Assembly (NCBI RefSeq): GCF_025612915.1
Contig: NC_069116.1
Span: forward strand, 6,218,123-6,282,122
Length of the DNA: 64,000 nucleotides
Direction: 5' to 3'
DNA from: Crassostrea angulata
Lineage: Eukaryota
The position numbers and the translations under genes were made by a program. Positions 1 through 46,510 of this stretch are shown in pieces. Every line of letters starts with the position of its first letter. The first letter of the stretch is position 1. The notes under the pieces are model-generated. The model was not told the DNA's origin. It saw only the letters and a list, made by a program, of their open reading frames with translations, and did no database searches.

Positions 1-248
1 AATTGATGACTGTTTTTGATTGAGTAATGCAATTCTATGATCACCAGGTTTTATGAATTGTTTCAAAAGCAAAAAACTAAAGTTGATTGATGCTGATTGA
101 TTGATGCTTGTTCTTGTTGTCATTGATTGCATTCTTGTCATTTGATATTGAAAAAAAGTAACCAGATTTTTCACTAAACAAATAAGTAACATGTACATTG
201 AAAAATTTGCCTTGTAATATGTATTGCTATTTATTCTGTATTTAACAG

Positions 249-411
249 GCAGGAGACAGAGTTGGAGTGAAGAGACGAGGGGATGGCACGCTCCACTTTT
301 ATGTGAATGGGATTGATCAAGGGCAGGGGGCAACAGGTGTCCCTCCCAATGTGTATGGGGTCATTGACCTTTATGGTCAGGCAGCACAGACCACCATTGT
401 TGACCATACAG
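249..411 (+). CDS. NEURL4: NEURL4-like exon (partial gene, C-terminal half of an NHR domain: [44 protein letters not shown])
   Basis: Acceptor ttaacag|GC at 247-248 and donor G|gtaaat at 412. The exon is an open frame matching the second half of a neuralized homology repeat (DGTLHFY.NG...G.......VY.V.DLYG). Confidence 0.75.
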
Positions 412-744
412 GTAAATATATTGAGGACCCTTTGTTGAAATGTATACACCCTAATCTAATCAGCTTGTCAGTTTTGAAAATCTGATGATTTTGTTTTATT
501 ATAAAACAGGTGTTTTTATTTATACATGTACATGTATATACATGTAATTATAAATGTTAGCTTGTTATTAAGTTAAATTGTACCTCACTCTTGTGTAATG
601 CCTTGAATGGAAAGAGTGCAGCATTTGAAATATTATGAATATTCAGACAATTTAAGCCTGTATTGCCCTGTAAGAAACAAGTGAAGTTAGAGGACTTCTT
701 AATAAGAAGTGACATGAGCAGAATGAGGTTGTGTCCTGTTTTAG

Positions 745-1063
745 ATCCCCTATCTCCGGATGCTGACTCCAGTAATATAAGCGACACAGAGGAACTCCGT
801 TTCCATCACATTCATGGTCAGAATTCCACCATCGCTAACAATGGTCGCACCTGTCTAAGGCCCAATGCCACAGGCGAGTTTAACGATGCAATAATAATGA
901 GCAGTCGTCCCCTGAAAGATAACGAGCTGTTTGAAGTTATCATTGAGAAGATGGTGGATCGCTGGTCTGGGTCACTGGAGGCAGGGGTGACCCTAATCAA
1001 ACCAGAGGAGCTGGAGTTTCCCAACACGATGACAGACATAGCATACGATACTTGGATGCTTAG
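745..1063 (+). CDS. NEURL4: NEURL4-like exon (N-terminal half of an NHR: [64 protein letters not shown])
   Basis: Acceptor ttttag|AT at 743-744 and donor AG|gtaggc at 1064. Phase 1 in, phase 2 out, consistent with the flanking exons. The NHR signature FH..HG.N..L.N.G..A.R.........FS.RPL...E.FEV.I.....WSGSL..G.T is present. Confidence 0.8.
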
Positions 1064-1308
1064 GTAGGCAGCTTGAACAGGACATATATAGGAAATAACA
1101 ATCTTATCATCCATGGCTTATCCATTATGTTACTTTTGAAGATTTCTAGAGTCTATGATTCTTAAAAAGAAAACTATGAATCAGATGTATAAAATTTTAA
1201 ACAATATGCATATAAAAATGTTTAAATATTTTGAAAGAAGAATGAAGCGTGAGATACTTTGGATGATTGATTTTGAAGACAATATTTTTGGGGTGTTGAT
1301 TTTGCCAG

Positions 1309-1478
1309 TGGGGCAGCCATCATGCAGGATGGGTCTACTATCAGAAATGGGTACCCCCTCGACCTTGATGCTGTTACTGTGGGTTGTAGGATCGGGATCA
1401 TGCGGTGCTCTGATGGCACTCTACATTATTTCTTGAACGGGGCTGACCAGGGAGCGGCCTGCTCAGATGTTCCACATG
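1309..1478 (+). CDS. NEURL4: NEURL4-like exon (C-terminal half of an NHR: [15 protein letters not shown]...[31 protein letters not shown])
   Basis: Acceptor ttgccag|T at 1307-1308 and donor G|gtgtgt at 1479. The incoming and outgoing phases match the neighbouring exons. Confidence 0.8.
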
Positions 1479-1821
1479 GTGTGTTATATCTCATAAACAG
1501 TATATGCCCATTCTAGATCATAATGCATTGTTTACATAGTTATTTTTTCTGTTAAAGTTTGTCAAATCAAGCTTGAAAAAGATTTTTCCTCTTTAAAATT
1601 TGCCCTAACAAGGAAATGTTTATACAATAAATGAACTTATAAATGATGTTCAGACTTCTGAAGCACATCTAACTCAGTGTCCTCAATTTTATGTACATTA
1701 CAATGATGTTAAAGAGCATTAAGTAAAAGGAATTAGATGCTGATTCCTGTGCACGTGGAACATACACTGTACCATGGAAGAGTTAAATTTGTTTTACCTA
1801 CTTTGATATCATTTTTAACAT

Positions 1822-1828
<7 letters not shown>

Positions 1829-1870
<42 letters not shown>

Positions 1871-2205
1871 ATTTTGTCGTCTTGTCTGTCCGTCCGTAAA
1901 CTTTTCACATTTTCAACATCTTCTCAAGAACTACTGGGCCAATTTCAACCAAACTTGGCAGAAATCATCCTTAGGCAAAGGGGATTCAAAGTTGTGAAAA
2001 TTAAAGCCACACCCTTTTTCAGGGGGAGATAATTAGAAATTATTGAAAAATTTTGAGAAATTTTCAAAATTCTTCTTCTCAAGAACCATAAAGCCAGGAA
2101 AGCTGAAACTTGTATGGAAGTATCCTCAGGTAGTGTAGATTCAAAGTTGTGAAAATCATGACCCCAGGGGGTAGGGTGGGGCACAATGGAGGGTCGAAGT
2201 TTTAT
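1829..2205 (+). mobile_element. Composite MITE/satellite-like repeat in NEURL4-like intron: 13-bp-stem hairpin (agctcacctgagc...gctcaagtgagct) + (GTCY)n head + about 2.5 tandem units of about 145 bp ending in gacccc(a/t)ggggg
   Basis: The palindrome and tandem units are directly visible. The same unit resumes at 3284–3560 after the LINE insertion. Confidence 0.7.
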
Positions 2206-3283
2206 CCTTGCTAGGATATCATGAATTTTGTACAAAATTTGAATTAAAAACACCATTTACATTATTTCTTGGAGTAATTGATTGTATTAGAAAAGTACAT
2301 TTGAATTATGACTATGGTAATATTCAAAGAAGTCAACCTTATTTCCCAAAATTCTTACAATTGATTACAAAAAGCAAACAAGGTGGTAGAGATTTCTATG
2401 ATGTTTTTATTAATCAGAAGTACAGAAAGCCAAAAAGTGAAATCAAATGGGAAAATATTTTAAACTTAAATGTTGACAATTCTTGGTGGAAAAAACAAAA
2501 TATTTTGTTTTTTAAAATAACAAATGATATACAATTAAGGTGGTTCAATTATAGAATTATACATAGAATCTTAGCAACGAATACATTCTTATGTAAAATT
2601 GGCATTACCAGTACAAATTTATGTAGTTTTTGTAAGATACATCCAGAAACACTGTGTCATCTTTTCTGGGAATGTGAATTTGTTGAAAATATTTGGGAAA
2701 ATGCATTGATTTGGTTCAAAGAACAGTTTGGAATAGATATATCTCTAAACAAAGTTGATGTTATGTTAGGAAAATACTACAAGTATTACAATATATTTAA
2801 TTTAATAATATGCATAATTAAAAAACATATTTATAGAAGTAGGAGCAAGAGTTGTAAACCCTCATTTGAAAGGGTCAAAGAGGAAATTGTTTACTACTTT
2901 CACTGTGAGAAACATATTTATAAAAAAAAATGGTGACATGGAAAGTTTTAATAAGCGATGGAACCTGATAATGTTTTAAGAAAAAGGATAACTATTTTTT
3001 ATGCAGTTACAGATGATGTAATACAATTATCTATTGCAAAAGCAAGATTAACATAAAATTATAGTTGTCTACATATTTTCATACGCATGTGTTTGGATGA
3101 ATATGTATAAATGTTAAAGAGAAAAACCTCTCACAAAAGTGTACAAGTTTATATATTTATATGTAACTGTATGTAACTTAGTACTTGGTGATCCCAGGGC
3201 CCCAACCCTGGCACCAAATATATTGCTTTATATTAAGTGATGGGACAATATAAGGTTAAAAGAAAAAAAGAAAAAAAAAAAGT
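2206..3283 (+). mobile_element. 5'-truncated non-LTR retrotransposon (LINE) 3' fragment: ORF2 C-terminal zf-RVT-like domain (ORF 2208–2936), 3' UTR and A-rich tail
   Basis: The ORF carries a W..RI.H.ILATN..L......S..C..C......HLFWEC cysteine motif typical of LINE RT C-termini. An A-rich tail lies at about 3258–3283. It is flanked by the same tandem repeat with an agtttta-like duplication at both junctions. Confidence 0.7.
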
Positions 3284-3560
3284 TTTACGTAGGAATCTAT
3301 TGAGTAAATGTTTAAAAATCTTCTTCTCAGAAACTAATCAGCCAGGAAAGCTAAAACTTGTGTGGAAGTATCCTCAGGTAGTGTAGATTCAAAGTTGTGA
3401 AAATCATGACCCCTGGGGGTAGGGTGGGGCACAATTGAGGGTCGAAGTTTTACATAGGAATATATAGAGTAAATCTTTAAAAATCTTCTTCTCAGAAACT
3501 AATCAGCCAGGAAAGCTAAAACTTGTGTGGAAGTATCCTCAGGTAGTGTAGATTCTTAAG
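3284..3560 (+). repeat. Continuation of the about-145-bp tandem repeat (two units) interrupted by the LINE insertion
   Basis: Units at 3290–3430 and 3430–3560 are near-identical to 2040–2200. Confidence 0.7.
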
Positions 3561-3893
3561 ACTTTGGTTCCAGGACAATTCTTCGGCCTCACAAGAAGGT
3601 TCAGAGTTTGATGTAGCTTTATATTCCATATATAAACAATCGGTAAGGATCTTTTTGAGAACTGCAATACTCAACATGTGATATGACTATGAAATCATCC
3701 TGTTGGAAAAGGGACTTATGATTATAAACATAAGAATATCCAAGGGGAAAATGGATTTGATATATACAGGATCTACATGTATTATTGTACATTGTCCAGA
3801 TAGTTTGTATTATGACTCCATTAAGCTGATTTTATCATACCTATTATTCTTCAGGTGAGCGATGTGGCCCATGAGCCTCTTGTTTAATTTCAG

Positions 3894-4019
3894 GTATATT
3901 TGCTGTGATTGACCTATATGGACAGTGTGCTCAGGTGTCTATTACCAGTGGATCAGGTGTTTACCAAGACAACAACCTCCCACAGTCTGATCAGGCCATT
4001 ATGTCACCCTCCTCATCAG
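3894..4019 (+). CDS. NEURL4: NEURL4-like exon (end of NHR plus linker: IFAVIDLYGQCAQVSITSGSGVYQDNNLPQSDQAIMSPSSS)
   Basis: Acceptor aatttcag|GT at 3892-3893 and donor CAG|gtaaat at 4020. The split codon with the previous exon gives Gly. The motif DLYGQ is present. Confidence 0.8.
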
Positions 4020-4363
4020 GTAAATAAACAAGTCATAATGTCACCTTACTCATCAGGTAAATAAACAAGCTATAATATCATCATTCCCATCAGGTAAATA
4101 AACAAGTCATTATGTAACCTTCCTCATCAGGTAAATAAACAAATCACAATGTAACCCCCCTCATCAGGTAAATAAACTAGTCATAATGTCACCCTCCTCA
4201 TCAGGTAAATAAAAAAGTCATAATGTCAATGTCCTCATCAGGTAAATAAACAAGTCATAATGTCACCCTCCTCATCAGGTAAATAAACAAGTCATAATGT
4301 CACCCTCCTCATCAGGTAAATAAACAAGTCATAATGTCACCCTCCTCATCAGGTAAATAAACA
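3996..4363 (+). repeat. 36-bp minisatellite of about 10 copies (unit approx gtcataatgtcaccctcctcatcaggtaaataaacaa) seeded from the exon 4/intron junction
   Basis: Each unit repeats the exon-4 3' end plus the 5' splice site CATCAG|GTAAATAAAC. Confidence 0.9.
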
Positions 4364-4428
4364 TCTTTAAAAAGAGTAATTATCCCTGCAAATGCAAGTA
4401 ATTTACTCAAACATTCCTCTTGTTACAG

Positions 4429-4568
4429 ATGTTTCTCACCGCTTTAGTTTGTGTTGTGGTAAATGTATAACAATAAAAAACAACAGCTGTACCACGGTAC
4501 GTTCCACTGGGTACAACAACGCCATCGTGTTCAGCTCCGATCCACTCAAGAGGGACGAGATATTTGAG
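4429..4568 (+). CDS. NEURL4: NEURL4-like exon (NHR N-terminal half: DVSHRFSLCCGKCITIKNNSCTTVRSTGYNNAIVFSSDPLKRDEIFE)
   Basis: Acceptor tgttacag|AT at 4427-4428 and donor GAG|gtgagg at 4569. Phase continuity holds. Confidence 0.8.
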
Positions 4569-4901
4569 GTGAGGAATTGAATGTGAAAGCATCTTCATCC
4601 AATTTAATAAGATATGGAAACAGTGTTTTTTCCCCCCATTTTATACTTGTTAATGAATAAGTAATGCTATAAATTTTAAAATCACTTTTTGAAGTATTTT
4701 TAAGAATGAATGAGTTAAGAAGAGTAACTGGTGATTTTGCCCCTATAGAGACTAGCCCTCGTGTCTTTGTTGCATATACTCATTATAGAATGATGTTCTC
4801 TAATAGTATAAATGTTACATATCCTACACTCTAAATAAATAGGTTTACAGTACCTTACAGTGGTGTAAAACTGTAAACATGTCTTCTTCCTTTTTTAACA
4901 G

Positions 4902-5114
4902 ATAAGAATTGATCAGGTGTGCCGAGTATGGTCTGGGTCACTACACATTGGTCTGACCACTCTAGCGATCTCTGATACAACCTCTTCCTCAATCATCCCA
5001 GCGTCTGCCCTTGAACTGACCTCCAAACTGACGTGGTTAATCACAGGGTCAGAGGTCAGGAAGAATGGTTTTGTCATCAAGGAGAACTATGCACCAGCTC
5101 TTGAGAGATTAGAG
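4902..5114 (+). CDS. NEURL4: NEURL4-like exon (NHR middle: IRIDQVCRVWSGSLHIGLTTLAIS...FVIKENYAPALERLE)
   Basis: Acceptor ttttaacag|AT at 4900-4901 and donor GAG|gtgagg at 5115. Phase 0 in, phase 0 out. Confidence 0.8.
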
Positions 5115-5376
5115 GTGAGGTCAAGAGATCATGCATTTCTATGCAATGATTGTTGGTAAATACATGAACATAAGAATGTACATGTACCAGTAAATATTTT
5201 TGAATTTCTTCATGCATTTACATGTACAAAGATGGTACCTGTAGTTTGAGAACTGAGAGAAAACTTCTAGAAAATAAAACAGTGATCGGATGATCAGAAA
5301 ATGAATTTGATAGGTTTTGCAGAATAAAGTAATCTGGTTTGTAATTGCTATATTTTTGGTGGGATTCTTTAAACAG

Positions 5377-5772
5377 GTTGGTAATTTTGTGGGCATCCGC
5401 CGCGTCTCAGATGGAACTCTTCATCTGTACATTAATGGTGAGGACATGGGCGTGGCAGCCTCTAACATCCCTAAGAACGTGTTTGTGGTGATCGACCTTT
5501 ATGGTCCAGTGGAGATGATCACCATCACCAGCAGTTGCTCTTGGGACGCCTCTTTAATGGCCAGCCAGCAGTCTCAGTCCATTACCTCAGAACTCGCCGA
5601 GGCAGCGGAGTTTGATGCGGATGAGGAATACCCCAATACTATTGGGTTCCACACGAACCATGGCAAGAATATAATGATCAGTAATGGAGGCCTGACAGCT
5701 GACAGAACAGAGAGTTACAACCAGGGAATTATTGTTACTAGCCAGCCACTGCGCAAGAAACACATGTTTCAG
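5377..5772 (+). CDS. NEURL4: NEURL4-like exon (end of one NHR, linker, start of the next NHR: ...GIRRVSDGTLHLYINGEDMGVAASNIPKNVFVVIDLYG...GFHTNHGKNIMISNGGLTADRTESYNQGIIVTSQPLRKKHMFQ)
   Basis: Acceptor taaacag|GT at 5375-5376 and donor CAG|gtagtc at 5773. The exon is 396 nt, open, phase 0 both sides. Confidence 0.85.
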
Positions 5773-6037
5773 GTAGTCATCTTCAGTGCTCTCTCTTGAT
5801 TGGTGCAATGTACTTTATCTTTCAAGACATAATTCTTGAATTTGTGAAATGTACTGGTACATAAAATTGAGAGTTCTGTTATAGTAATGTTAAGAAAATT
5901 TGGTTCGCAAAATGTCTCCTATGGAAGCTTTAGGGCAGTATTTGGTGTGAGAGAAAATTGTTATTATTTAATATGAACATGATACACTTGGTATATAACA
6001 GGTATCATACAATTTGAAAGTTTTTTACCTGTATCAG

Positions 6038-6196
6038 GTGCGGATTGAACACCTGAACACCCGCTGGAGTTTCTCACTGATGATCGGTGTATTGGGATTC
6101 CCCCCTGATAAATACACCTTTCCTGTGTCTTCCATGTCCATCAAAAAGTCCTGTATCATGATTCAGGGGAATGCAGTGTACAGCTCAGGGTGTAAG
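6038..6196 (+). CDS. NEURL4: NEURL4-like exon (VRIEHLNTRWSFSLMIGVLGFPPDKYTFPVSSMSIKKSCIMIQGNAVYSSGCK)
   Basis: Acceptor gtatcag|GT at 6036-6037 and donor AAG|gtaggg at 6197. Phase 0 both sides. Confidence 0.8.
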
Positions 6197-6553
6197 GTAG
6201 GGGCTCTCTAGATATACATTATTACGTGCAGTGCATATCTACACACAGACTCTTTGATTATCATTTGATGATTTGATGATTTTTTAGGCATATTCATGTA
6301 AAGTGATTTGCATGTGTACCAGGCTACATCTATTTTTTTCCCTTAACAAGGACAGATCCACAGCGAATACCACAAGTTTTTGTCTTATAGTCTCTATGTA
6401 ATGTTTAATATTAAGATGAAAAAGAACTTTTTGAGTTTTGTAATATAAAACATGTTTAATGTGCTGATATAGTTGTGTAGATACATGCTACAAACATGTA
6501 TTAACAGATGATTGAAGACTGACTTAAATCGCATTGAAATTCATTTTACACAG

Positions 6554-6733
6554 ATTAAAGAAAATTATGGTCCAAATCTGGATGAGCTACAGATTGGTCA
6601 TGTGATAGGGATAATGGTGGATGAGGAGAGTAACCTGCGACTGTTTTTTAACGGGGTGGATCAAGGCGTGGCGGCGCGGGATGTCCCAGGCTCCTGTTAC
6701 GGTCTGGTGGATCTCTATGGGATTTGTGACAAG
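6554..6733 (+). CDS. NEURL4: NEURL4-like exon (last NHR C-terminal half: IKENYGPNLDELQIGHVIGIMVDEESNLRLFFNGVDQGVAARDVPGSCYGLVDLYGICDK)
   Basis: Acceptor tacacag|AT at 6552-6553 and donor AAG|gtaggc at 6734. Phase 0 both sides. Confidence 0.8.
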
Positions 6734-6996
6734 GTAGGCAGACAGGAGAATTGGGTGGGGGATCAGATGGGAATATTTATTGTTGCTTGTTGTGTGTATC
6801 ATTTTATTTTTTTTTCAAAATTATCAAACTAAGATCTGCAAATTAAATAATTGTAAACAGCCTTCTGCATAATGAAAGAGCTAAAGTAAGTGTTGTGTTT
6901 AGAAGAATATTTCTACCTGCAAACCAGTCTAAAGGACTATTGTCATTTGTAACTAGATTTTCTGTTCGTTTGATTGTGTCTCTGTTGATCTGTCAG

Positions 6997-7087
6997 GTGA
7001 CAGTGGTCCCTAACGAAGGAAGTGGGGAATCCCCTGAGCCTCATCACAAAGACAAAGAGAAGGCAGAGAAAGAAAATATGGAAGAAG
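6997..7087 (+). CDS. NEURL4: NEURL4-like exon (acidic linker VTVVPNEGSGESPEPHHKDKEKAEKENMEE)
   Basis: Acceptor ctgtcag|GT at 6995-6996. Donor is AAG|gtgggt at 7088. An alternative donor lies 4 nt downstream. Confidence 0.6.
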
Positions 7088-7239
7088 GTGGGTAATTGCT
7101 CCCTGACATACAAGCAGACCACACAACCTGATACATGTAGTTGATATTGGCATTACAGTACATGTAAACTTTATTGAAGCAGCCCAATCTTCTTTTTAAT
7201 TGTTGAAATAATTTCCTAGGATACTTTTTCTGTTAACAG

Positions 7240-7350
7240 TGCTTAAGGAAAAGCAGAGTCTGAGTGAGTCCATTTTAGGGAGTGTTGTGATTCGGCCATG
7301 CGAGTACGCCAAAACTTGCTCCAAAGTTCGCAGTCTGATGGGTATCCCGG
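7240..7350 (+). CDS. NEURL4: NEURL4-like C-terminal region exon (VLKEKQSLSESILGSVVIRPCEYAKTCSKVRSLMGIPG)
   Basis: Acceptor gttaacag|TG at 7238-7239 and donor G|gtaagt at 7351. The phase is compatible with the previous exon. Confidence 0.65.
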
Positions 7351-7597
7351 GTAAGTCAACAGAGCATAAAAGTTACATTGTATAACCATAATTATCATAT
7401 TAGAAATTTTTTTTGTAAACTGGAAATTTTCTCCTTGAATATAATACCGGTAATAATTAAAATAATTACAATTTATAAACTTTTTGATATTTTTGTTGAG
7501 TAAAATAACTACTTTTTAGGGTTTTATGGTGCAGAGAATTGAAATTATTGTTGACTACCTGACCTCTTCAAATTACATGCTTCATTCTTAACTGCAG

Positions 7598-7736
7598 ATG
7601 GATTCTTCCTGGAACAACAAATGACATGTTATTGTGAATCTTGCCATAAACTTAGATCGGAGGATTTGTATCTCAGGAGAGGGGAACCCCCTAGGGAGTA
7701 CTCGGTACCCCTGGGATGGTGCCGATACATTCTCAA
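7598..7736 (+). CDS. NEURL4: NEURL4-like C-terminal exon (DGFFLEQQMTCYCESCHKLRSEDLYLRRGEPPREYSVPLGWCRYIL)
   Basis: Acceptor aactgcag|AT at 7596-7597 and donor AA|gtaagt at 7737. Phase compatible. Confidence 0.7.
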
Positions 7737-8113
7737 GTAAGTTATTCCTTTCATACAACTTAGAAGGGCCCAGTTCCCACTAAACAAAATAAATTAATCC
7801 TTAGTTTCGAAAGCCAATATTAAAAATATAACGTGGGAAACAGGTATTTTATTTTTAATTACATATGTACATGTACATTGTGAGATTTGCAGAGGGGAAT
7901 AACTCATTTTTAGGCGATGCCTGTTGAGAAACTAAAATATTTTTTTTGCCCAGCCTTAGTGACACCCTAATAATGAATTTTGATACCAAGTTTCAAGTGC
8001 AGGTCAAAATCATTATTTTTTTATTGGGCTTGTAAACATCTAGGAACCATTTACCAGTTCTTAAAACTGTCTGATATTTCACTTCTCCCCCTGGGATTTT
8101 TCTTTCCTTGCAG

Positions 8114-8229
8114 ACAGCGTCAGAAAGCATCATCATTTGTAGCATCGGACAAATGGCATGTGGCATATTATGGAACGCAGCTGGAGGTCCTTAGAAAAAT
8201 TCTAGACACTGGAGATATACATGCATGTA
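8114..8229 (+). CDS. NEURL4: NEURL4-like C-terminal exon (KQRQKASSFVASDKWHVAYYGTQLEVLRKILDTGDIHAC)
   Basis: Acceptor tccttgcag|AC at 8112-8113 and donor A|gtaagt at 8230. Phase compatible. Confidence 0.7.
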
Positions 8230-8468
8230 GTAAGTGTTTGGAAGAGGTGATTACATAAATAGGCAACAAATGTTACACCATCAGATCACATTTATATATT
8301 TTGACAAAATCATGAACATGCATAAAAAACATAACTTGTGCTTAAAACTCAGATATTTAAAGATACTGCCAAGTTTGACTAATTTCAGAAAATGTTTGGG
8401 AGTGCAAACTAGCTTAGAACAAAGACAAGTGGCGAACGTGTAAAACCATATATGCTTTTGTTGTCAAG

Positions 8469-8616
8469 GTGACCAGATGGGAGGAGGAAGCATTCTGCTG
8501 CCACAGTCCATAGCATTCACCGAGAAATCCCGCCCAGACAGCTCTAGTCTCAAACAAATCATCATGTCTCCCACTATACGATACATAGGATGTAACGAGT
8601 TCTCGCCCAAATTCAA
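8469..8616 (+). CDS. NEURL4: NEURL4-like C-terminal exon (SDQMGGGSILLPQSIAFTEKSRPDSSSLKQIIMSPTIRYIGCNEFSPKF)
   Basis: Acceptor ttgtcaag|GT at 8467-8468 and donor AA|gtaagt at 8617. The − strand ORF 8464–8652 in the track is the antisense of this exon. Confidence 0.65.
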
Positions 8617-8838
8617 GTAAGTCACAAAATTATTATTTCTCCAATGATACAAAACATTAGATGTAATACACCCTCACAGCAATCAAGTTTAAGTTAGATG
8701 TACATATGTATATATACTTTAATCCCCCCTAATAAGGCAATGTAAAGTCACAGGATCATTATGGTCTTCAGCAACATTCCACCTTTACAACATTCCTTTA
8801 TATCGTATATGTCTGATAATTGCTTCTCTTTATTACAG

Positions 8839-9049
8839 ACTTCTAGATCCAAGAACAAAAAAGACATTCCATGTTCGAGTGGCATTTCAGGTCTGGCTAA
8901 AACCAGGCTCGTATAAAACAGGTCCCCAGAGTCTGGGTCTCACCGATCAGATTGATCCACAGTTCCCCAACAGTGAACTGGAGTGGTCCACCAAGGAGCA
9001 TGGGTCCGTTCTCTTACATGGACTGCTTATAAAGATAGAAAACTTGTAG
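8839..9049 (+). CDS. NEURL4: NEURL4-like terminal coding exon (...FHVRVAFQVWLKPGSYKTGPQSLGLTDQIDPQFPNSELEWSTKEHGSVLLHGLLIKIENL*)
   Basis: Acceptor tattacag|AC at 8837-8838. Stop TAG at 9047-9049, followed by 3' UTR. Confidence 0.7.
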
Positions 9050-13160: not shown

Positions 13161-13929
13161 GTATATGTATTAAAAGACGACTAGTTACAGAGTACATGTA
13201 TATTTAACGTTTTCATGCGATGTTTCAGTACTGAAACAATATTAAAATTCGCTATACATAAAAAATATTAAATACAGTTAGTGAAACATGATTTCTATTG
13301 GAACAAACCTAAATCAACTTTAACTTGCACGATCATGTTTTGATAGGCATGTATTTTTATTATTTATTTACATCGATAACTCTTACTGATAACTCTTACT
13401 GAGACCATTCGGCTGTGTACAAGCAGCACACATAACCTCGGACATCGGGTGAGACCTGCACCTGGCTGAACCTGTCAATCAAACTCTGTGTATTTGTTTT
13501 CATTGGATGGTCAGGCGTCTCTCTTTTGTCAAAAGCCAATGGAAAATTAATGACTTCAAGGTAATCGGAATCAGTATTTGATGAAGCAATGAGTTCGTTT
13601 CCACAATGAAACTACAGAAGTGATTAATATGTGACCGATAGAACCTAATCTAAAGTTGTTTAAACTCATGTGAATATTTTTTAAAATAATCATCGAATGC
13701 CTCAATTCAGGGCATTCCTTTATCGTGCTAGCACCTACCGCAAACATGGAACTTTGATTATAATTTGATTTCATTTTTAAACTATCTTGTACGCTATCGT
13801 ATAAATCAATGCTTAATCAACTGTACAAGTAAAATAAATTTATCTTTTCATCTTAAACCAATATAATAGTTGAAAACATAATAAAATATAGTTGTGTCCG
13901 TGCAAAATATGAAACATAAACGCGTCATA

Positions 13930-14800
13930 AGGAACATGTACAAAAACACGAACCGACCGCGGATCACTTATCTACTCGCGCCGGATCTCCTCAGCCATGT
14001 GCGAGGGATGATCATCATTTAAAGGTTTAATATTTGAGGGGGGTTGTTGATTTAAAACATTAATTGTACAGTTTTTAAAGTACTTTACCTAAACAAACCA
14101 ACCATTAGTTGTCTAACGATTTTTCCGATTTGGAGTAATATCGTTCGTTAATATTCATTTACACTCAAATATTTAATTAAATATATATACAAGTAGGACA
14201 AACTTTTATAACATAAAATTAAAACAGTTCTTGTATATACGGCTATATTAACTCAAACACGTTCATATGCATGTAAATGTAAGTCGCGGTGTGCGAATCT
14301 TGTGTATTAAATAACCGCTTACCGCTAAGTAATGCAGCCGTGGCTGATCTCCTCGGCCGTGGGCGAAGAATAGATTACGTAAAGGTACAACGCACAGAAA
14401 CGCACAGCTCAGAACCAAGGAAGATTTGAAAAGTTTGCAGTATAATGACCTTACTCTATCAAATAGAAGTTATATATTTTAAACTTAAACCCCACAATTG
14501 ATCTATGTCTATTATTGCTTTAGGGAATGACATTGCTTTTATTAATTAAATGAACTATTTCTTACTTGACATCCAATCGTTTAATCCACAAAAGATTTTG
14601 TGTAATCAAAACTAAAACAATTCTTGAGTTCGCGGCTAAATAAAGTCATATATGAGAGACGCAATTCTCGTGTATTAAATAACCGCTGACCGCTAGGTAG
14701 TCCAGCCGCGAGCATGGTAACCGATTTTCTCGGCCGAGGGCAAGGGAGAGCTTACATAATGGTACACACACATGCAGCTCTGATTCAAAGTAGATTTTAA
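13930..14800. repeat. Three diverged copies (about 13935–14040, 14230–14420, 14600–14790) of a repeat with conserved core gtgtattaaataaccgct.accgcta.gta..cagccg...tctcctcggccg.ggc.a
   Basis: Direct alignment of the three segments. Copy spacing is about 370 bp. Confidence 0.6.
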
Positions 14801-15781
14801 ATGCATGGAGTTAATAACTAAAATATAATGCATAGAGTTTTTTAATTCCATATTTTGTGGTTTACTAGAAAAGAAAAAGAATGTTTTGTTTTCCAATTGC
14901 CGTTTTTAATGATTGTGCACTATAAGAACTTAACAACAATGACTTTAACTCCTAAAGGAAAAGCTTATACTCAAACAACAAAAAAATTCTTATGAATTAA
15001 TGCTTCTTGTATAAACCAGCATACTTTCTGCGGCAACTTTATGCCAGTTGTACGCACAAAGACTTTCGTTAACTTGTCAAATGACAACAGGTACATGTCA
15101 ACATGTAAAGCTTTTTACACTCATACTACACAAATCACTTATAAAATAACATTGTTACGACCTTTATGAGATCCCAACAAACAACTTTTCCAGCGACAGC
15201 CATATCAAAATCCTAACCGTTTTTGAGTTATTAAGCAAAAACTTTTAGGGGCTATTGGCCCTTAATTTAAGGGGCCAACCCTTTTTTATTGGTGTTAAAT
15301 GAAAGCCCTTGATATTCTGTACAACTTTTATTCAACATGTCTTAACAAAATATTTTTCGTTAAAAAGATATAAAGGAAAATATGTCTAAATTTTTGCACT
15401 TTTTGGAATCCTGTTTTTTGACCCCCTACCTTTTCCTAAATAAAAAACGTAATCTAAAAACAAAAACTAATGTGCACCACTACAATGTCTCTGCTATTCA
15501 AATTCGTTGGATTCCCATTCCCTGCTATCATAGTCTCGGAGCCTTTGTCTGGAAACCAAAGGCCCTAAAAAATTTTAAAAGGGGAATAACTCGTTACCGG
15601 AAAGGGAATTCTAACTTTTATGAATTGAGGAAGATAGTGTTTTGTAAAGTCCATTAGCCCTGAAAATTTGAGCAAAAACCGTTCACAAATGAGCACGATA
15701 TGAAGCCTCAAAGTTCGCGTCTAGGAAGAAAAAAAAAAAAAAAAGAAAAATAAGAATAATCTTAACCAGCACAATAATAGA

Positions 15782-15812
<31 letters not shown>

Positions 15813-16768
15813 AAATCTTTTTAAAGCGGGTTTGTCTACCTTATTAGACTTATCTATGACTCTAGACTTGTCTATCTTATCAGGTACCCTTTAAGCATAA
15901 ATAAACAGTTCCTAACGAATAACACATTCATTTTAGGTCTTAAACTGGAATTTTCACTTCAACATTCAAAATGTAAACAAACGCTTTGTTTACATAGCGA
16001 AGAATTGTAAGCTCTGTAACTCGCTTATAACTCAACAAATGATACTCAAATTTTCGTTGCCTATTGAAAATGCCTTACTAAAGCATTGTAAACATCAAAA
16101 TCGAAAAAATAATTTTTGACCAAAATCGTGACCTTGCCCCTTTTGAATACATTAACTCGTGTTTACCACTTTTAAAAGACACGAGATAGTGGAGTTCTTG
16201 ATTTGTCTGATGCTATCCATATAGAATGTTTGAAATTTTGGTTCAATCCGGAATAATCAGAGAATCAGAAAACAAAACACACTTTGTCCATCTGGTCGTC
16301 CATCTTTTTTCGGCATAGCAACCCAGATGTATTTGGTTGTTGCGATATAAAAAATGATGCCATTTTGTATGGAGGGTAATCGCGTTCAAAAATCCAGACA
16401 TGTAAACTTGTAAATCCGAATATGCAATCGTGTTGATGTGTGAGCATGAATATGTGTAATTCTGATCGTGTAACCTATAAAACTCGGGCATAAACACGTG
16501 TAAGATTTGACTCAGTTCCTTCGCATGATGCACATTTTGCAACTTTACTGGCGTGCCAGTATTGTTTACATTAGTTAATTAAACCTTCAACTTCAAACGC
16601 GCTCTGAAGCGTTCAATGGACATTGATCACGAAGTGAAACAGAAAGTAGAAATGGTTACGCATGTGTTGTGAAACATGCCTCAATATTATTTATTAATAT
16701 TTATTATGTAAGTAGCAGTTGCTACAGTATATTTATATATATTGTATATTGAATATAGTTTTGTTAAA

Positions 16769-16842: not shown

Positions 16843-17044
16843 GTACTGTACAATAACGTATATCTACTTTAGTCGGTGAATAAGGTAGTATATTTAAACA
16901 AGTTAATGTTATTTCATGTCAATTAAACTAGATAATTACAGAATGATATTTGTCATATGAAGATTTTTAACCGCGACGAGCCCCTGTGATTTACTTTGCC
17001 TGAATATTGGGGCTTGAAGACCCTTCTTGTCATCACACTATGAT

Positions 17045-17243
17045 CACAGGCACCTGAATTTTTATCAATCAGTCGCTTAGTCAAATAGAAAAAAATTTAC
17101 TCCTACTTTATATCAATCAGTCGCTTAATAAGTCAAAAATAAAACTTCTACCCCTACTATATATAAATTTAGATATAGTAGGGGTAGAACATTTTATATT
17201 TGATTTATTAAGCGACTGATTGATAAAAATTCAAGTGCCTGTG
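17045..17243. mobile_element. MITE-like foldback insertion in RANGRF intron 1 (TIRs cacaggcacctgaatttttatcaatcagtcgcttag ... ctaagcgactgattgataaaaattcaagtgcctgtg)
   Basis: About 36-bp terminal inverted repeats, an internal direct duplication and a central palindrome (ctactatatataaatttagatatagtag). Confidence 0.7.
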
Positions 17244-17277
17244 TTGTTATCATGCGGTACATTGTGCTGTTTAACAG

Positions 17278-17391
17278 TGATCTACGACAGATTCCTGATA
17301 ACCAAGAAGTGTTTGCACACCCAGTTACTGACCAAAGCATCATCATTGAAATCCTGGAATATGTGGATAAAGATGACGACGAGGCCATTAG
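17278..17391 (+). CDS. RANGRF: RANGRF/MOG1 exon 2: [38 protein letters not shown]
   Basis: Acceptor tttaacag|T and donor AG|gttagt at 17392. The DNQEVF.HP.TDQS motif is diagnostic of MOG1. Confidence 0.9.
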
Positions 17392-18563: not shown

Positions 18564-20055
18564 AAGTCTCCATACTTGAACTCCATGAGACATTTGATAC
18601 TTACTGTTGTGTTGTCAGGTATATGAGGTGGATGATCAGTTGTGAGTGAGAGCTCACTTGTACAGAGAAACAACAAATTGATTGTGTAACACCTTGAATG
18701 ACAAAACCCATTCAATCGATATGGGTCACTTGAAGGGTTTTTCTAATGTCTTAATCATTAATTATGCAAACAAGATACTTTTTTGAATTTTGGATGCATG
18801 GAAATTTACTTTCAAAGGGTCCAGTATTTCAGATGTTTTGTTCATCGTGTGTACATACAAAACATGATTCTGGGAGGTGTTATGAGAACTCAGTTTTGTC
18901 CACCCAAACATGTAGCATGTTAAGGAAAAGTATAGCAGGTTTATAAACATCTATAAGAATGGAAGGTGCTTTCTATTATTTGGTGTCATTTACACTAGGG
19001 GTACTGAGGGGTACTGGGACTATGCTTGACCTCTAGTGAACTCATCCAGCTTGATGTTGATTGGTCATTAATGAGGATATTGTACGTGAAGTATATATTG
19101 TAAAGTTAATTGTACTAAAGTCTTTGCCTTGTAATGACATTCGGTTATTGTTATAAAGACAATACATTAAATAAAAAAATATCAAACCATTACTGAAAGA
19201 TATTTTATAGGCTATAGTTATGTATGAAATAGACAACTTTTTATCTGATTAATTTTACTGTTGGTTATGTGTTTCATGTTATAAGTTCTGTCCAGAATGT
19301 GAATGTGAATGGATATGTACACCTTAATAATAAATATTTGACATGAGATATATTGCTTTAAACAAGTGGAATTGACCATTAGCTCAAAGTAAACAGTTCG
19401 ATTCCCATGGTTTTTTTAAAATATGGTTTTTGACGATGGTGTAAAATGAAACATCTTTGTCACTACCCCCCCCCCCCTAAAAAAAAATTCTAATTTTTTA
19501 TGAATTATATTACTTAGAAAACGGAACTACCTAATGTTAAAAAATTGAAGAAAGTACAATGAACAAAATAATAACAATACTGCAAACATTTTTTAAACTA
19601 GTAGTCTGCAGTGGTTTGGCAGGCAAGTGGCTGAACAATTCAGCCATAATGGCAGTGTTTACTGTCAATTGTGAGCGATATACTGTACATGCAATTAATG
19701 TTCTGAAATGTGAGGTACTATTTAATATGATCGTGAGTGCTATTGCACTTGGATATTAATTAACATTTTTAATAAAATATGTTAAAAAACATTTCCTTTT
19801 GTGTAAATACTGTGCTTGTAAATTTAAAAAAAACATTGCTAGTATTATTATTGGATTATTCAGAAAAACACGTACAGAGTCAAATCATTATCCAAAACAC
19901 ATACAAAATTTGAAGAATTCTATAGTTCTTCACCAGAATTTCACCACACTAAACAAATTGTACTTGTCAAAAGTTATTCACATTGCAGTAGCCCCGGGTT
20001 TATTTTTGTGGTATTTTGAAAACATGATATCGAAAAAATCTAGGTTTGTAGGTTT

Positions 20056-20139
20056 TCAGGGATTAAAAAATAACTTCTTGGTAAATGAACTTGTATACTC
20101 CACTATCTCTGGCTCGCTGACCGCATTAAGGTGATTTAT
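20056..20139 (-). CDS. Caspase-like gene, terminal exon (INHLNAVSEPEIVEYTSSFTKKLFFNP*)
   Basis: Acceptor ctgttttacag|ATA. It aligns with the caspase-3 C-terminus KQIPCIVSMLTKELYFYH. Stop TGA at complement 20058-20056. Confidence 0.65.
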   Translation of the reverse strand: MNHLNAVSEPEIVEYTSSFTKKLFFNP

Positions 20140-29469: not shown

Positions 29470-30065
29470 GAATAGGGCCACATAAAAATATTTTTATCTC
29501 GTAAATACGAAAAAAGATCTCGTTATTACGAGTTAATTATCTCGTTATAACAAGAAAAGATCTCGTTATTATGAGTTAATTATCTCGTAATTACGAGAAA
29601 AGATCTCGTTATTACGAGATAATTATCTCGTTATTACGAGAAAAGATCTATTTAAAATGGTGCATTTCATTGTTCTATTCCCTTTATGTAAAGAGTATGA
29701 ACTAATGCAATGTTTATTATTATACACATCCTTAGCATCGTTTTAAAGCGTGCACATAATTTGATATAAAATCGGACAAAGCAGTTTTAAAGAAACTACG
29801 AGAAAAGATCAAAATTAAATCAACGTTTCTAGAAAGAAAAAGATAGACTGAAAGGATAATCCCGTCGACAAGGAGGTCTTTTCAGAAACGCTTCATTTCA
29901 TATAATTTTTTTCTCGTAATAACAAGATCTTTTCTCGTTATTACGAGATAATTAACTCGTAATAACGAGATCTTTCTCGCAATAACGAGATAAATAACTC
30001 GTTATAACGAAATCTTTTCTCGTTATTATGAGTTTTAAAGAAATAGGGCCACATAAAAAAATATT
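29470..30065. mobile_element. Foldback-type element: subterminal inverted arrays of (tctcgttattacgag/ataattatc) tandem subrepeats flanking an about-250-bp core, bounded by direct repeats atagggccacataaaaa
   Basis: 29500–29650 and 29900–30040 are reverse complements of each other, made of about-25-bp subrepeats. The 17-bp direct repeat is at 29473 and 30044. Confidence 0.65.
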
Positions 30066-31370: not shown

Positions 31371-33670
31371 ATGCAAATAATTTTTAACGGTCAAAATTAT
31401 ATTGAATTACCATTGTTTCTCTTAGGAGATTTTAATTTTGATATGCTAGCTGATGGCAATAATGCATTTAAACAAATGCTGCAAAACTTTTCTTTGTCAA
31501 ATGTTGTGAAACAACCAACAAGTTTTTCAACATCAAGAGGTACATTTATTGATCTTTTTATGACAAATGTTGTTGAACATATTGAATCTGTAAATGTCTT
31601 AACACCATTTTGTAGTACACATTGTCCAGTGGGTGCAGATTTACATTTAAGCAACATTCATACAAAAGATACGTAAGAAATTATGCAAATGCAAACTACA
31701 TACAATTGCGCAAAGACTTATTAGATGTTGATTGGGATATGGAGGTATTTAATACTCATAATATCAATGATATTTATGACAATTTTACTAAAGTATATGA
31801 CCATTATGTTGACAAAAATATTCCCAAAAAAGTAGTTACTATTCATAGGATACACTATAAGGCAAAATTAAAAAACAATGATTACCAGTGGGATAAATAT
31901 CGGCAGCTAAGAAATGAAGTCATAAGCATGGTGCGCAAATTAAAACAAGCTTACAAAGAAAAAATTACCTCTCAAGTGTTAGATAAAACAATCCCTCCTG
32001 GAAAATGGTGGCGAATAGTTATTTTGCATCACTGACCAGGATGTAGAAGATCAACTAAGAAATATAAATCCATCTAAACCTCCAGGACCCGATGATATTT
32101 CTCCACATATACTTAAAAAAAATTATCCCTTCCATTATTAGACCCCTTACAAAGTTGTTCAATTTATCATTAAGTAATAAACAACTCCCTCATGTGTGGA
32201 ATGTTTCCAATATCACACCAGTTTACAAAAATAAAGGTAACACTGAAGAGCCAGGAAACTATAGACCAATCGCGTTAACTAGTATTTTATGTAAAATTAT
32301 GGAAAAAATCATTTTTAAATATCTCTACAACTACATGTTAGAGCATAATCTTTTATCTAAAAACCAATCAGGTTTTCAACCTAGAGATTCTACTGTGAAT
32401 CAACTTTTGGAAATATATAATACTATTATTAGCAATCTAGACCAAGGAAAAGATGTTAGGTTTATATTTTGTGATATTTCAAAAGCATTTGACAAGGTCT
32501 GGCACAAGGGACTATTATATAAGCTAAAACAAAATGGTATCTATGGGAACATATTAGATTGGATTGAAAATTATCTTACTGACCGCGAACAAAAAGTATT
32601 GTTAGACGGATATTTCTCTACTGAACAAAGTATAAATGCTTTTGTTCCCCAGGGCTCTGTACTTGGTCCATTTCTTTTTTTTTTTGTATATATTAATGAT
32701 ATCACTCTTACTCTTGAAAATCAAATTCGGTTATTTGCAGATGATACTTCTCTTTTTGCAATTGTAGACTCTGATACAATAGGACCTGCAATATCTTTAA
32801 CAAATGATCTAGAAAAAATTAAAAAATGGTCTACACAATGGCTGGTGGAGTTTAATCCTAACAAAACTGTAAATGTTAACTTCACTCGGTCAGATAAATC
32901 ACATCCGGATATCTCCTTTGGTCATACAATAAACTATATAGACTGTAAGCAAAATCACTGTCACCTCGGACTAATTCTCCAATCAAATGCATGTTGGTCT
33001 GAACAAATTACAAACATTTTTGATAAAGCAAGTCAACGTTTAAATGTTCTTCGTACTCTTAAATACAAATAAAACAGGGAGTCTTTAACTAAAATTTACA
33101 TTTCCTTTATTCGTCCTATTTTAGAATATGGTGATGCAGTATGGGATAATTGTACGCAAGAACAGAGCAATCTTTTAGAAAGTGTACAAATAGAGGCTGG
33201 GCGCATTATACAGGACTGAGGCGCACTTCCTCAAGACAAAACTTATAGAATGAATTAGGGTGGGAAACGTTAAGCGATAGAAGGAAAAAACACAAAGTTA
33301 CACTCATGTATAAAAAACTGAATAATTATACACCCAAATATTTGTTTGATATGGTTGAACAGTGTCTCCCAGTCTCACACAATTATTCATTACGTAATAA
33401 TAACTTGTTTCACATTCTAAATACCAGAACTGTTGCATATTATAATAGTTTTTTACCCTCAACAGTTAAATTATGGAACACTTTGCCGAACAGTTTAAAA
33501 TCTGCATGTAAATCTTCGGAAAGTACGATACGTATATACTATTAGTATTATAAATATTTATACCTTGATCTCAGATGGAGAGAACTAATATAGGCTATTA
33601 TTGCCTGCTGTTCAATCCAGATTCATTTATATACTTATATGTATATTTTTGAATAAAATATTTCTTAAAC
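31371..33670 (+). mobile_element. 5'-truncated CR1/L2-like non-LTR retrotransposon: endonuclease C-terminus, RT domain with FADD motif, C-terminal domain and 3' UTR. It is degraded by stops and frameshifts.
   Basis: ORFs 31371–31676 (LGDFNFD..., EN end), 31622–32035, 32092–33072 (RT: PPGPDDISP...YRPIALTSILCKIMEKII...FCDISKAFDKVWH...FADDTSLF) and 33306–33545. The frame breaks at 31677 and 32035–32092. Confidence 0.8.
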
Positions 33671-36180: not shown

Positions 36181-36596
36181 GTGTTCAGATCTAAAACAAA
36201 GAAATAGTAGGTGGTGTGTTAGCATTTTTGCCTAATGTATTCTTATGCTTATACTTCTGAAGGCCATTTCTGGGGAAAATTTATGCGAGTTCTCCTCCAA
36301 AGATTCACTTGAAAATTTTAGAGTCAAAACTGTATGTGTTTATTAAGCACTTTATATATAAGTAGCATATAAATCATACATTGATATGTCATTATAACAT
36401 TATTTATTTCATGAAATTTTTTAACCATTCTAAACTGGAATTCTTCGAATTAGAATAAACACAATAAATTCTAAGATTGAGGTTGAAATCTCAATTTCTA
36501 TCCCTTTTCACAAAGCTCAAAAAAAGGAAACATAAAAAAAACGCATTAAAAAACATGCTCATATGTAGTCTAATTCAATGCAAATTTATTAATCAG

Positions 36597-36943
36597 ATCA
36601 TAAAAGAGCCGAGGTATCAGATGAGCCCGTTCCTTCTAGTCCTGATGAAGATGAAGAAAATCCTAAACCAGCAGTAAATTCAACAGGTCAAGGTCAAACG
36701 GGAGCCGATGAATTATATGAGCCCGTTACTTCTAATCCAGTTGAAATTGAAGAAAACCCTGAACCAGCAGCAAATTCAACAGGTCAAGTTGAAGAAAAAA
36801 GAGCCGAGGAATTAAATGATCCCGAGCTAGACACGGTGGACATAGATCAGGCAATCCCTAACAAACCAGAGGAACGGTCTATGCTAAACAATTATGACGA
36901 GACCGTCCGGGCGCTGAACTATGACGTAGAGGACCGTCCATAG
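36597..36943 (+). CDS. Candidate downstream exon of S1: Met-less acidic repetitive ORF (HKRAEVSDEPVPSSPDEDEENPKPAVNSTGQGQTGADELYEPVTSNPVEIEENPEPAANSTGQVEEKRAEELNDPELDTVDIDQAIPNKPEERSMLNNYDETVRALNYDVEDRP*)
   Basis: A 115-codon open frame opens right after a stop, beside an AG at 36595-96. It has no internal start Met until near its end and contains two about-35-aa tandem repeats. It needs a phase-1 upstream donor, which is what S1 exon 1 provides. Confidence 0.3.
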
Positions 36944-40600: not shown

Positions 40601-41789
40601 AATTGGCAACATAATGTGAATGCATGTGAATGTTACTGACTGTATAAAGAGATGTTATTGTGCAGTATCGGTGTTATATACTTTATATCGTATTACAATT
40701 TGAAAGACATCAACATTTGGGAATTGTTTGACGAAATACGAGCAAACTTGTCTTACAATGAGATATTGCAATATTTGGTGCCACCTGTTTTCGATCAAAA
40801 AGTAACAGAAGGAAAACTACAAATTGGTATGTTAGAATGACTAACATAACTTCCTACCTATTCTTTACCTTAGCCCCTAAATCATAAACGTTTCGTAGTA
40901 GCTTTGGCATAAACACTTTAAAGGAAATTATACCATGCCCAGTTGAGAGTTTTACAAAACTAAAATAGCAAATAAAGAAAGATAAAATTACTTTTTTATT
41001 CACCATCATAGTTTAAAATGAATATAAATTAATGAGAATATATTTTTTATTCCAGTACCACTGGCATATTGAAAAGAACAGTAAAAGAACTACAATTTTT
41101 TTTTAATCAAACAGTACTTTGTTGCGTTTTGATTTCACTCTTTATTTACACTAAAGAGAATTACAACACAGTAAATTTATTAAAGTACACTGTTTATAAT
41201 AGAATTTCTGCAAATGTTTTCCACATAAACTAACACATTGACTGATTTAAAGGAGAGGGTGAATTAAGTTTTTATAACTTGTGCCCAATCTTATTGTAAT
41301 ATAAAATGCAAAAAAATATGTTCAAATCAGACTGATTCATACTTATAACAAGGTACCTGACAGCATACTTATTTTCATTTGTTGACTTAGTAGTACAAAC
41401 GTCTGAAAGTTTTGAACAACTAAAATACATATGTCTCACCATGTATAAACCTATTTATTCCAAAATTAGACTGCAATTTTTTTTATCGTGTAAAGCTGAT
41501 TGAATGAATCAATTATTCTGTTTGAAAGTAGTGTACATAATAATTCACCTTTTTTGGTTGAGAATATAGTTTCTGTTACACTTAATCTGTTTGAAGATTG
41601 AGTATTTTCAAGATAACAGCTGAGACGACATGCTGAATTAATTATAACATGTGACAGCAACCATTGATTCCTAGTTTTCCTTTATCAAGGCGGAGTTACA
41701 AGGATTTTTCTTATTCTTAACGATCTTTCACAAAGCAATATAAAAAGATGATTAATTCAACTACGGTGACACCAGGGATCCGTAAGACA

Positions 41790-42057
41790 ATGGCAAAGAT
41801 TCAACTGACCACTCTGTTTTCCACAGTTCTTATCATATGTTACTGCAATGCAGCAGTCCTTCCTCCAAAGATCGATGAAAGCTCAGTATCTCAACCTGTA
41901 CCCATCCCGCCCCCATCAGGGAAGTGTGAATACAATGGGAAATATTATGACCCTGGAGTTATCGAAAAGGAGAAGAATGGTGACTGTGTGTCTGACGTCA
42001 CCTGTATGGAAGGCGGTGTGATTTCGATCGGGGACTGTTTGGAAAGAATGGATAAAG
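41790..42057 (+). CDS. S2: small secreted cysteine-rich protein, exon 1 (MAKIQLTTLFSTVLIICYCNA | AVLPPKIDESSVSQPVPIPPPSGKCEYNGKYYDPGVIEKEKNGDCVSDVTCMEGGVISIGDCLERMDKG)
   Basis: Signal peptide then four-Cys motif GKCEYNGKYYDPG...GDC.....C.EGG......C. TATA aatataaaaag at 41735 places the upstream ATG (41748) before the likely TSS, so the start is called at 41790. Donor AAAG|gtaggg at 42058. Confidence 0.65.
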
Positions 42058-42203
42058 GTAGGGCGATCATCATCGGCATATTTGCATAAATAATACAAAA
42101 CGTTGCATTAAAAAGTTGATGTTCTGTTTTATGAGATAAACGTAAAATAAGTATCTTAAAAAAATATAATTATGATTGTCTCACAGTATTTTGCTCATTT
42201 CAG

Positions 42204-45988: not shown

Positions 45989-46510
45989 ATGGTATATTTA
46001 CTATCAAATTGTATATCAACATTAATCACCATAGTTTAATTTTATCTAGGTAAACTGTTTTTACTAATATTTCGGCATAAAAGAACTCAGACCGATTCAT
46101 TTTTATCACAAAGTACTTTACAGTATACTTATTTTCATTGGTTGAAAATATTCTCACCACGTATGAACCTATTTATTCCAACGTAATACTATTACTTTTT
46201 TCTAACCGTTTAAAGCTAATTATATGGAATAATTATTTCGTTTGAAGAAAGTATGTACACAGATGTTTATCTTTGTTCAGAATACAATTTTTTCTGTTAC
46301 ACATAATCTGCTTGATGATGGAGTACTTTTAAGATATCAGCTTAGTTGGCATGCTGAATTAATTATTACATGTGACACAAATCACTGATGCCTCATTTAT
46401 CTTTTTTAAGGCGGGGTTACAAGTATTTTTCTTTTTTACAACGATTCTTCACAAAGCAATAAAAGGAGATGATTAATTCAACTACGATGATACCAGGGAA
46501 CCGGAGGACA

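Follow-up and report, generated by a model that had tools for sequence, protein, structure and literature searches.

The array described here lies in a multi-NHR, NEURL4-like gene. On the plus strand, positions 1-9000 of the window (the whole 64,000-nt stretch of DNA that was analysed) contain a chain of exons for Neuralized homology repeats, and in Pfam the conceptual translation of these exons contains four PF07177 (Neuralized) stretches (E = 4e-125). Homologues are 36-61% identical, and JGI and NCBI name some of them neuralized-like protein 4; bryozoan, shark and coral proteins are the nearest named ones, at 44-52% identity. For comparison we used orthologous regions on four long-read metagenome or host contigs (L008-L011) and eight metagenome contigs (L012-L019). 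Exon d, the fourth exon within the window, follows an acceptor ttcag/G at 3893/3894 and ends at a donor CAG/GT at 4019/4020 (in motifs, the slash marks the splice junction), and exon e, which comes next, begins (D)VSHRFSLCCGK (Table 1). The junction between them is placed by the reading frame, by the continuation of the NHR in exon e, by the intron position in orthologous loci and by collinearity with P0001, a spliced, intron-free homologue on contig L013 that aligns along the window exons in tblastn and joins the end of exon d straight to an (E/D)VS(H/Q)RF exon. An orthologous exon e was found in L008-L012, and exon d donors stand at the matching place in L011 (CAG/GTAAAT) and L012 (CAG/GTAGGT). 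The intron after exon d is 409 nt long, or 76 nt (11 + 65) once the nine extra units of the array are subtracted, and other introns of the gene in the window measure about 250-350 nt.

Some further features of this gene deserve mention in their own right. In the 2.4-kb intron upstream of exon d lies an open frame of 253 codons (2175-2933) with a zf-RVT (PF13966) match, a retroelement fragment that probably explains the length of that intron. Exon d itself holds a candidate in-frame alternative donor (TCAG/GTGTTT at 3950-3962, with its GT at 3957), use of which would skip a 21-residue linker, GVYQDNNLPQSDQAIMSPSSS, and still be in frame to exon e. The first exon of the chain also ends in CAG/GTAAAT (406-418, ..CATACAG/GTAAATATAT), identical over nine bases to the donor that the array reiterates.

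Tandem Repeats Finder (TRF) reports one head-to-tail array at the end of exon d, with 88% matches and a score of 580. Its unit joins 23 nt of exon (3997-4019) to 14 nt of intron (4020-4033), and the first unit (3997-4033) contains the exon-intron junction 4019/4020. Cuts made every 37 nt from 3997 onward place every unit in register, and a 12-mer, CAGGTAAATAAA, recurs exactly in 10/10 units at 4017 + 37k (4017, 4054 ... 4350). The consensus unit, CATAATGTCACCCTCCTCATCAGGTAAATAAACAAGT, has seven matches at ≤3 mismatches compared with none in 100 dinucleotide-preserving shuffles, and it shows none of the scattered copies of a dispersed family, with no match at that threshold outside 3997-4366 within the 64-kb window. 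Older degenerate units beside the array were considered and rejected, as local alignment on both flanks stayed at shuffle level. Between positions 3000 and 5500 of the window no Rfam family was found at E ≤ 1, and the RNA structure of the array transcript is not unusual (folding z = -0.64).

The per-unit comparison points to an array with some history. Units 2-5 and 7 carry three to six substitutions each, private or shared, and are 8-16% diverged. Divergence of the central units combined with identity at the 3' end indicates an old array that has recently turned over at one end, not a fresh artefact, and the identical 3'-terminal units mark the most recent expansion or homogenisation.

Since CAG/GTAAATAAA is exact in all ten units, the intron begins with the authentic donor and nine downstream decoys, whose GTs lie at 4057, 4094, 4131, 4168, 4205, 4242, 4279, 4316 and 4353. 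Every decoy overlaps an AATAAA hexamer (+4 to +9) and is preceded by a pyrimidine-rich stretch, TCACCCTCCTCAT. At the junction the frame runs ..TCA TCA G/GT AAA TAA, and the stop-to-stop ORF 3875-4024 accordingly ends ..SPSSSGK. With this TAA at 4025-4027, every downstream donor means a premature stop, whatever the frame arithmetic of a 37-nt unit.

The sequence-only reading of this stretch had described an array at 3996-4363 in a NEURL4-like gene, with its first unit lying across an exon-intron boundary and with G-K-stop read from any downstream donor. The gene assignment is upheld by the four Neuralized stretches and the homologue names, the boundary by the collinearity of spliced P0001 on L013, and the stop by the TAA just described; the array itself starts one base later than was thought. 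Its supposed 36-bp unit, split into 24 nt of exon and 12 nt of intron, has to be replaced by a 37-bp unit (from TRF and the in-register 12-mer) split 23 + 14, and the downstream donors that it placed at 4056 and 4092 were 1-2 nt off the true GTs. Its figure of about ten tandem donors is right for the exact CAG/GTAAAT sites in all; it had put all ten downstream of the authentic site, where there are nine.

Table 1. Features at the exon d junction of the window and duplicated splice junctions in orthologous loci.
Locus	Feature	Positions	Strand	Unit and copies	Remarks
Window	Exon d (exon 4 within the window)	3894-4019	+		Encodes (G)IFAVIDLYGQCAQVSITSGSGVYQDNNLPQSDQAIMSPSSS, last part of one NHR domain and a linker
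Window	37-bp minisatellite	3997-4363	+	37 bp x 9.9	Consensus CATAATGTCACCCTCCTCATCAG/GTAAATAAACAAGT; unit 1 is exon end plus intron start
Window	Authentic 5' splice site CAG/GTAAAT	4017-4025	+		GT 4020-4021; sole donor keeping the frame into exon e
Window	In-frame TAA	4025-4027	+		Read upon use of a later donor or retention of the intron (..SSS-G-K-stop)
Window	Nine decoy donors CAG/GTAAAT	4054-4358	+		Same as the authentic donor; exact 12-mer positions
Window	Three 3'-terminal units	4256-4363	+		Equal to the consensus exactly (per-unit mismatch table)
Window	Unique intron remainder	4364-4428	+		Polypyrimidine tract and acceptor ..ttcctcttgttacag; without array-like similarity
Window	Exon e	4429-4568	+		Start of next NHR domain, (D)VSHRFSLCCGKCITIKNNSCTTVRSTGYNNAIVFSSDPLKRDEIFE; donor GAG/GTGAGG
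L009	Array at exon d donor	5400-7994		137 bp x 19	120 exonic + 17 intronic nt
L009	Array at donor of the 'FHCNHGKNIM...LFQ' exon	18669-20106		137 bp x 10.5	119 nt exon + 18 nt intron; unrelated to exon d array
L009	Third exon, 3' end and donor copied				Embedded in 698-bp repeat
L010	Duplications at the donors of the two L009 arrays	6513-6830, 13443-13762		About 159 and 151 bp, 2 copies each	~82% identical
L014	Array at exon d acceptor	2-641		56 bp x 11	Also L015:1-247 (x 4.4)
L014	Array at a further donor, inside NHR exon	1274-1692		60 bp x 7	About 4 nt of intron after 56 nt of exon
L014	Exon d donor, degenerate second copy				In intron

Short-read contigs from the same species bear on whether the array is real. 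A window ORF at 5314-5796 encodes protein P0051, and seven such contigs carrying P0051 are 96.5-99.6% identical to the window. Two Logan contigs, L002 (99.3% identical) and L005 (96.5%), come from different runs and represent different haplotypes; they reach furthest upstream, and both start at window position 4334, 30 nt before the array exit. We take the Logan contigs to have been built with k = 31, so that 30 nt equals k-1. A k = 31 contig must stop where the last 30-mer of a unit precedes two different bases, and the genomes behind L002 and L005 therefore hold at least two units each, which places a repeat at this site in two other individuals. A break k-1 before the array exit is the signature of a branching repeat and argues against an assembly artefact, a possibility that the sequence-only reading had itself raised; together with the substitutions specific to individual units, the breaks of L002 and L005 at the array edge indicate that the array is real. 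Exact-protein look-up with five window ORFs (3909-4064 and 3905-4027 on the plus strand; 3516-3677, 3619-3792 and 4407-4598 on the minus strand) returned no contig over the left edge of the array.

The orthologous loci also indicate in which direction the array arose. Exon d is single-copy in L008, L011 and L012, with a related end sequence at the same intron position, and an orthologous exon end (..SPSS followed by CAG/GTA) is found in six other invertebrate loci. In L008-L011 exon d ends ..TTCAACTCNCCNAGTTCAG/GTA, encoding ..NSPSS; in L012, which is closest to the window (exon c is 83% identical in protein), it ends ..TTTATGTCCCCTATCACATCAG/GTAGGT, compared with ..ATTATGTCACCCTCCTCATCAG/GTAAAT in the window. 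Because this exon end is orthologous across loci, the exonic 23 nt of unit 1 represent ancestral coding sequence. Unit 1 also keeps an ancestral T (CATTATG), and most downstream units have A. The array was thus seeded on the junction, and the exon neither grew into a pre-existing repeat nor was captured from one. Seeding on an exon-intron boundary was proposed in the sequence-only reading, and the proposal agrees with the orthology of the exon end and donor to the single-copy ends in L008, L011 and L012.

Repeats of other kinds lie close to the same junctions in these loci. In L012 a 39-bp x 12.9 array (3580-4083) starts 32 nt past the e+f exon donor, near the junction and not spanning it. In L008 the intron after exon d contains a tRNA-like stretch at 7795-7870 (..GGCTCAGTTGGATGCGCC..GGTTCAACCCCCGCC..), which is probably a tRNA-derived SINE.

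Duplications that do span splice junctions are found in several of the orthologous loci (Table 1). Two unrelated 137-bp arrays of L009 (5400-7994 and 18669-20106, with 19 and 10.5 copies) have the same period and 93-97% matches. Also in L009, a 698-bp x 3 tandem repeat at 14488-16576, in the preceding intron, holds the last 59 nt of the third exon and its donor; the authentic copy of this exon end (..CACATACAGCAG/GTAAATAGGTACAGT) lies at 16864-16937, and one more lies downstream at 17137-17362. In the L010 duplications the donor of the second copy has decayed, from CAG/GT to TAAGGT in one and to CAGCTA in the other, and the unit boundaries differ from those of L009. Since unit boundaries differ and the introns of L008-L011 are not mutually alignable, the duplications are lineage-specific. 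Shared ancestry of the L009 and L010 duplications was rejected as a simple explanation on the same two grounds and on a third, that the intronic copies are 82-97% like their own exon.

The L014 and L015 contigs extend the pattern to an acceptor. Their 56-bp unit consists of ~36 nt of intron (pyrimidine tract and CAG) and the first 20 nt of exon d, and in L014 it provides up to 11 acceptor copies upstream of the authentic one; an asymmetry limited to donors, which we had considered, was rejected given this array. The 60-bp array of L014 is in frame and without stops, such that later donors would add 20-residue repeats, and its duplication junction makes a donor (GTGAGA) better than the original (GTATCT). 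It has seven copies compared with the single copy of L015 (836-991), and the two contigs are 93-95% identical.

Junction-spanning TRF arrays number 5, where random placement predicts 1.9 (p = 0.045, or 0.11 when the window is left out), and exon d compared with other exons gives a Fisher p of 0.011 (0.089 without the window). These counts are only suggestive, and we do not claim a mutational hot spot at the exon d junction; lying within ~2-fold of random placement, the arrays of the orthologous loci require no special mechanism. In 6/6 donor arrays the donor lies within the final 7-38% of its unit (p about 0.02-0.03 when combined), the units being mostly exon with a short intron tail of 4-34 nt. 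These repeat-rich genes tolerate junction-spanning duplications, and such duplications have arisen repeatedly in the orthologous gene.

The window array belongs to an already described class, that of human F7 IVS7, and is less novel than the sequence-only reading had implied. In F7 IVS7, a 37-bp VNTR of 5-9 copies carries strictly identical pseudo-donors; all of them are functional in tests, only the most upstream is used, and inactivation of the first donor shifts splicing to the next (Borensztajn et al. 2006, PLoS Genet, PMC1557585). As in the window, the first F7 monomer spans the exon-intron boundary, the authentic donor is followed by identical pseudo-donors and the use of a later site disrupts the message; the copy numbers are similar (5-9 and 10), and the shared period of 37 bp is a coincidence. 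The F7 unit, however, combines 4 exonic with 33 intronic nt (23 + 14 in the window), and its donor is weak (UGG/gugggu), whereas that of the window is near consensus (CAG/GTAAAT). The host of the window array is an invertebrate with short introns, and the F7 array is polymorphic and experimentally dissected. At the sequence level the window array has all the features of the F7 IVS7 class, and what is new is its occurrence in an invertebrate and in a different gene.

Further members of the class are found in CBS intron 13, IFI6 (6-16) intron 2, LMNB2 and PDGFA intron 4, where donor-reiterating arrays of 15-20, 26, 10-15 and 16-18 copies, respectively, in units of ~12 to 100 bp, start on the exon-intron boundary (PMC1557585). 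The window array likewise begins on the boundary and repeats the donor; unlike these four, it has an in-frame TAA 6 nt into the extension that every downstream site brings. In a related process, new introns arise when an AGGT-containing segment is duplicated in tandem (PMC3265369, PMC4974935), and this too supplies extra AG/GT copies usable as splice sites without point mutation. There, an exonic copy makes a new intron that restores the message, whereas the copy in the window includes an existing donor and needs no new intron. The array matters little for its gene alone, and its wider interest is as an invertebrate example of a donor-reiterating minisatellite.

The sequence shows a tandem duplication that spans the junction and has grown to ten units; we consider it probable that the first donor is the one used, with the decoys silent or leaky, and that the array is a nearly neutral passenger. 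A short tandem duplication would have arisen across the boundary of exon d and its then 76-nt intron in an AT-rich invertebrate, and the duplicated unit (23 nt of exon and 14 nt of intron) would later have been amplified by slippage or unequal exchange, leaving an intron that begins with ten identical CAG/GTAAAT donors. The spliceosome would use the most upstream of these, as the analogy with F7 IVS7 and the intact, conserved NHR exons downstream suggest. The nine decoys would normally be silent, or their low-level use would send stop-containing transcripts to nonsense-mediated decay, and copy number would drift.

The 'most upstream donor' rule of F7 comes from mammalian cells (PMC1557585). 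In the window the last donor (GT 4353) recreates the 76-nt intron and could compete strongly if the host uses intron definition; were short-intron pairing to favour it, most transcripts would be unproductive. It is nevertheless unlikely, in our judgement, that downstream donors are used appreciably and that the array works as a dial for unproductive splicing, with gene output depending on copy number and stop-containing transcripts that may undergo nonsense-mediated decay or encode a truncated protein ending ..SPSSSGK. Such use would fit the identity of the ten donors and of their 37-nt surroundings, as well as the restored 76-nt intron, and two downstream pseudo-sites are indeed used in human IFI6 and CBS; the intact frame and conserved NHR exons downstream speak against it, as does the use of only the first site in F7, LMNB2 and PDGFA (PMC1557585). 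Ten identical near-consensus donors in front of one acceptor form a natural test case in a short-intron organism, given that the mammalian 'most upstream site wins' and the 'nearest pair wins' of intron definition make opposite predictions at this array.

The preferred reading, with its nearly neutral array, has to accommodate the conservation of the donor itself. A 15-nt core, CATCAGGTAAATAAA (CATCAG/GTAAATAAA, -6 to +9), is invariant in 10/10 units, and the 22 substitutions of the array fall in 15 columns, all among the 22 columns outside the core. Among column permutations, 0.05% show an invariant run as long as this (p about 5e-4), and a base-aware test, which corrects for the surplus of substitutions at C, gives p about 0.003 on non-C sites alone. 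The core covers both the donor (-3 to +6) and the AATAAA hexamer (+4 to +9), and the absence of substitutions from it in ten units is not expected under strict neutrality. One could suppose that the decoys are functional and kept by selection, in that U1 snRNP at the nine pseudo-donors could help to define the short exon or intron, or that U1 'telescripting' could mask the overlapping AATAAA and block premature cleavage and polyadenylation inside the gene. The core has indeed stayed invariant though units 2-5 and 7 diverged by 8-16% elsewhere, and AATAAA stands at the same place in every unit. Selected decoys are improbable all the same: with 15 variable columns the sample is small, the invariant block includes AATAAA, which if harmful should be free to decay, and homogenisation by conversion may account for the invariance. 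Conservation of this kind is also not general to such arrays, as the L009 137-bp array has lost the donor GT in 3-4/19 units. It is likewise doubtful that the core is under purifying selection through U1 acting along the array (to silence ten poly(A) hexamers or to promote the first site) while the junctions of this gene are recurrent targets of duplication; if that were true, a junction-linked mutational or filtering process could feed the evolution of introns and alternative splice sites.

Drosophila recursive splice sites consist of a pyrimidine tract followed by a CAG/GTAAGT-like motif, and they are single, conserved and located in introns of tens of kilobases. Each unit of the window array might be read in the same manner as a composite 3'/5' splice site, a recursive 'ratchet' by which the array is removed stepwise and a mis-chosen donor is repaired, but we regard this as very unlikely. 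As at the Drosophila ratchet points, a 3' and a 5' splice site do stand back to back: the unit reads TCACCCTCCTCATCAG/GTAAAT, with 11/14 pyrimidines before CAG, and so has the pyrimidine tract-AG joined to GTRAGT that such points display. A possible branch A lies in CATAAT, 18 nt upstream, and if a donor were spliced to the CAG of a unit further on, the exact original junction would be regenerated, the retained piece being GT...YnCAG. The composite motif exists, however, because the exon end encodes S-P-S-S-S, and ten copies spaced 37 nt apart, unlike the Drosophila points, are explained by descent from that exon end. Neighbouring units at this spacing are too close for an intron between them, variation is greatest in the columns of the pyrimidine tract and the putative branch region, and in place of one site in a long intron there is a 409-nt intron with a motif that the orthologous introns lack.

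We also regard it as exceedingly improbable that the array results from misassembly, or that the exon donor moved into an intronic minisatellite that already existed or was carried by a transposon. Assemblies are error-prone at tandem repeats and minisatellites are abundant in these genomes, but the units carry their own substitutions, breaks at the edge of the array occur in two independent assemblies, the rest of the window holds no further copy of the unit, and the exonic 23 nt of the unit are orthologous to exon ends in six loci (single-copy in L008, L011 and L012).

Elsewhere in the window, a reverse-transcriptase ORF at 31616-33069 (RVT_1, E = 4e-31) belongs to a non-LTR-type retroelement. 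Two paralogous open frames without a Pfam match lie about 4.7 kb apart, at 41721-42086 and 46463-46873; both are signal-peptide-like and contain cysteines (..LPPKI..SGKCEYNGKYYDPGVI.KEKNGDCVSD.TCMEGGVISIGD), and they are probably copies of a tandemly duplicated gene for a small secreted protein. Other repeats include a 96-bp x 1.9 repeat at 36606-36788, within an acidic, proline-rich open frame (36593-36940), which looks like a coding repeat since 96 is a multiple of three, and two blocks of 22/43-bp repeats at 29494-30032 built from the palindromic motif CTCGTAATTACGAG / CTCGTTATAACGAG.
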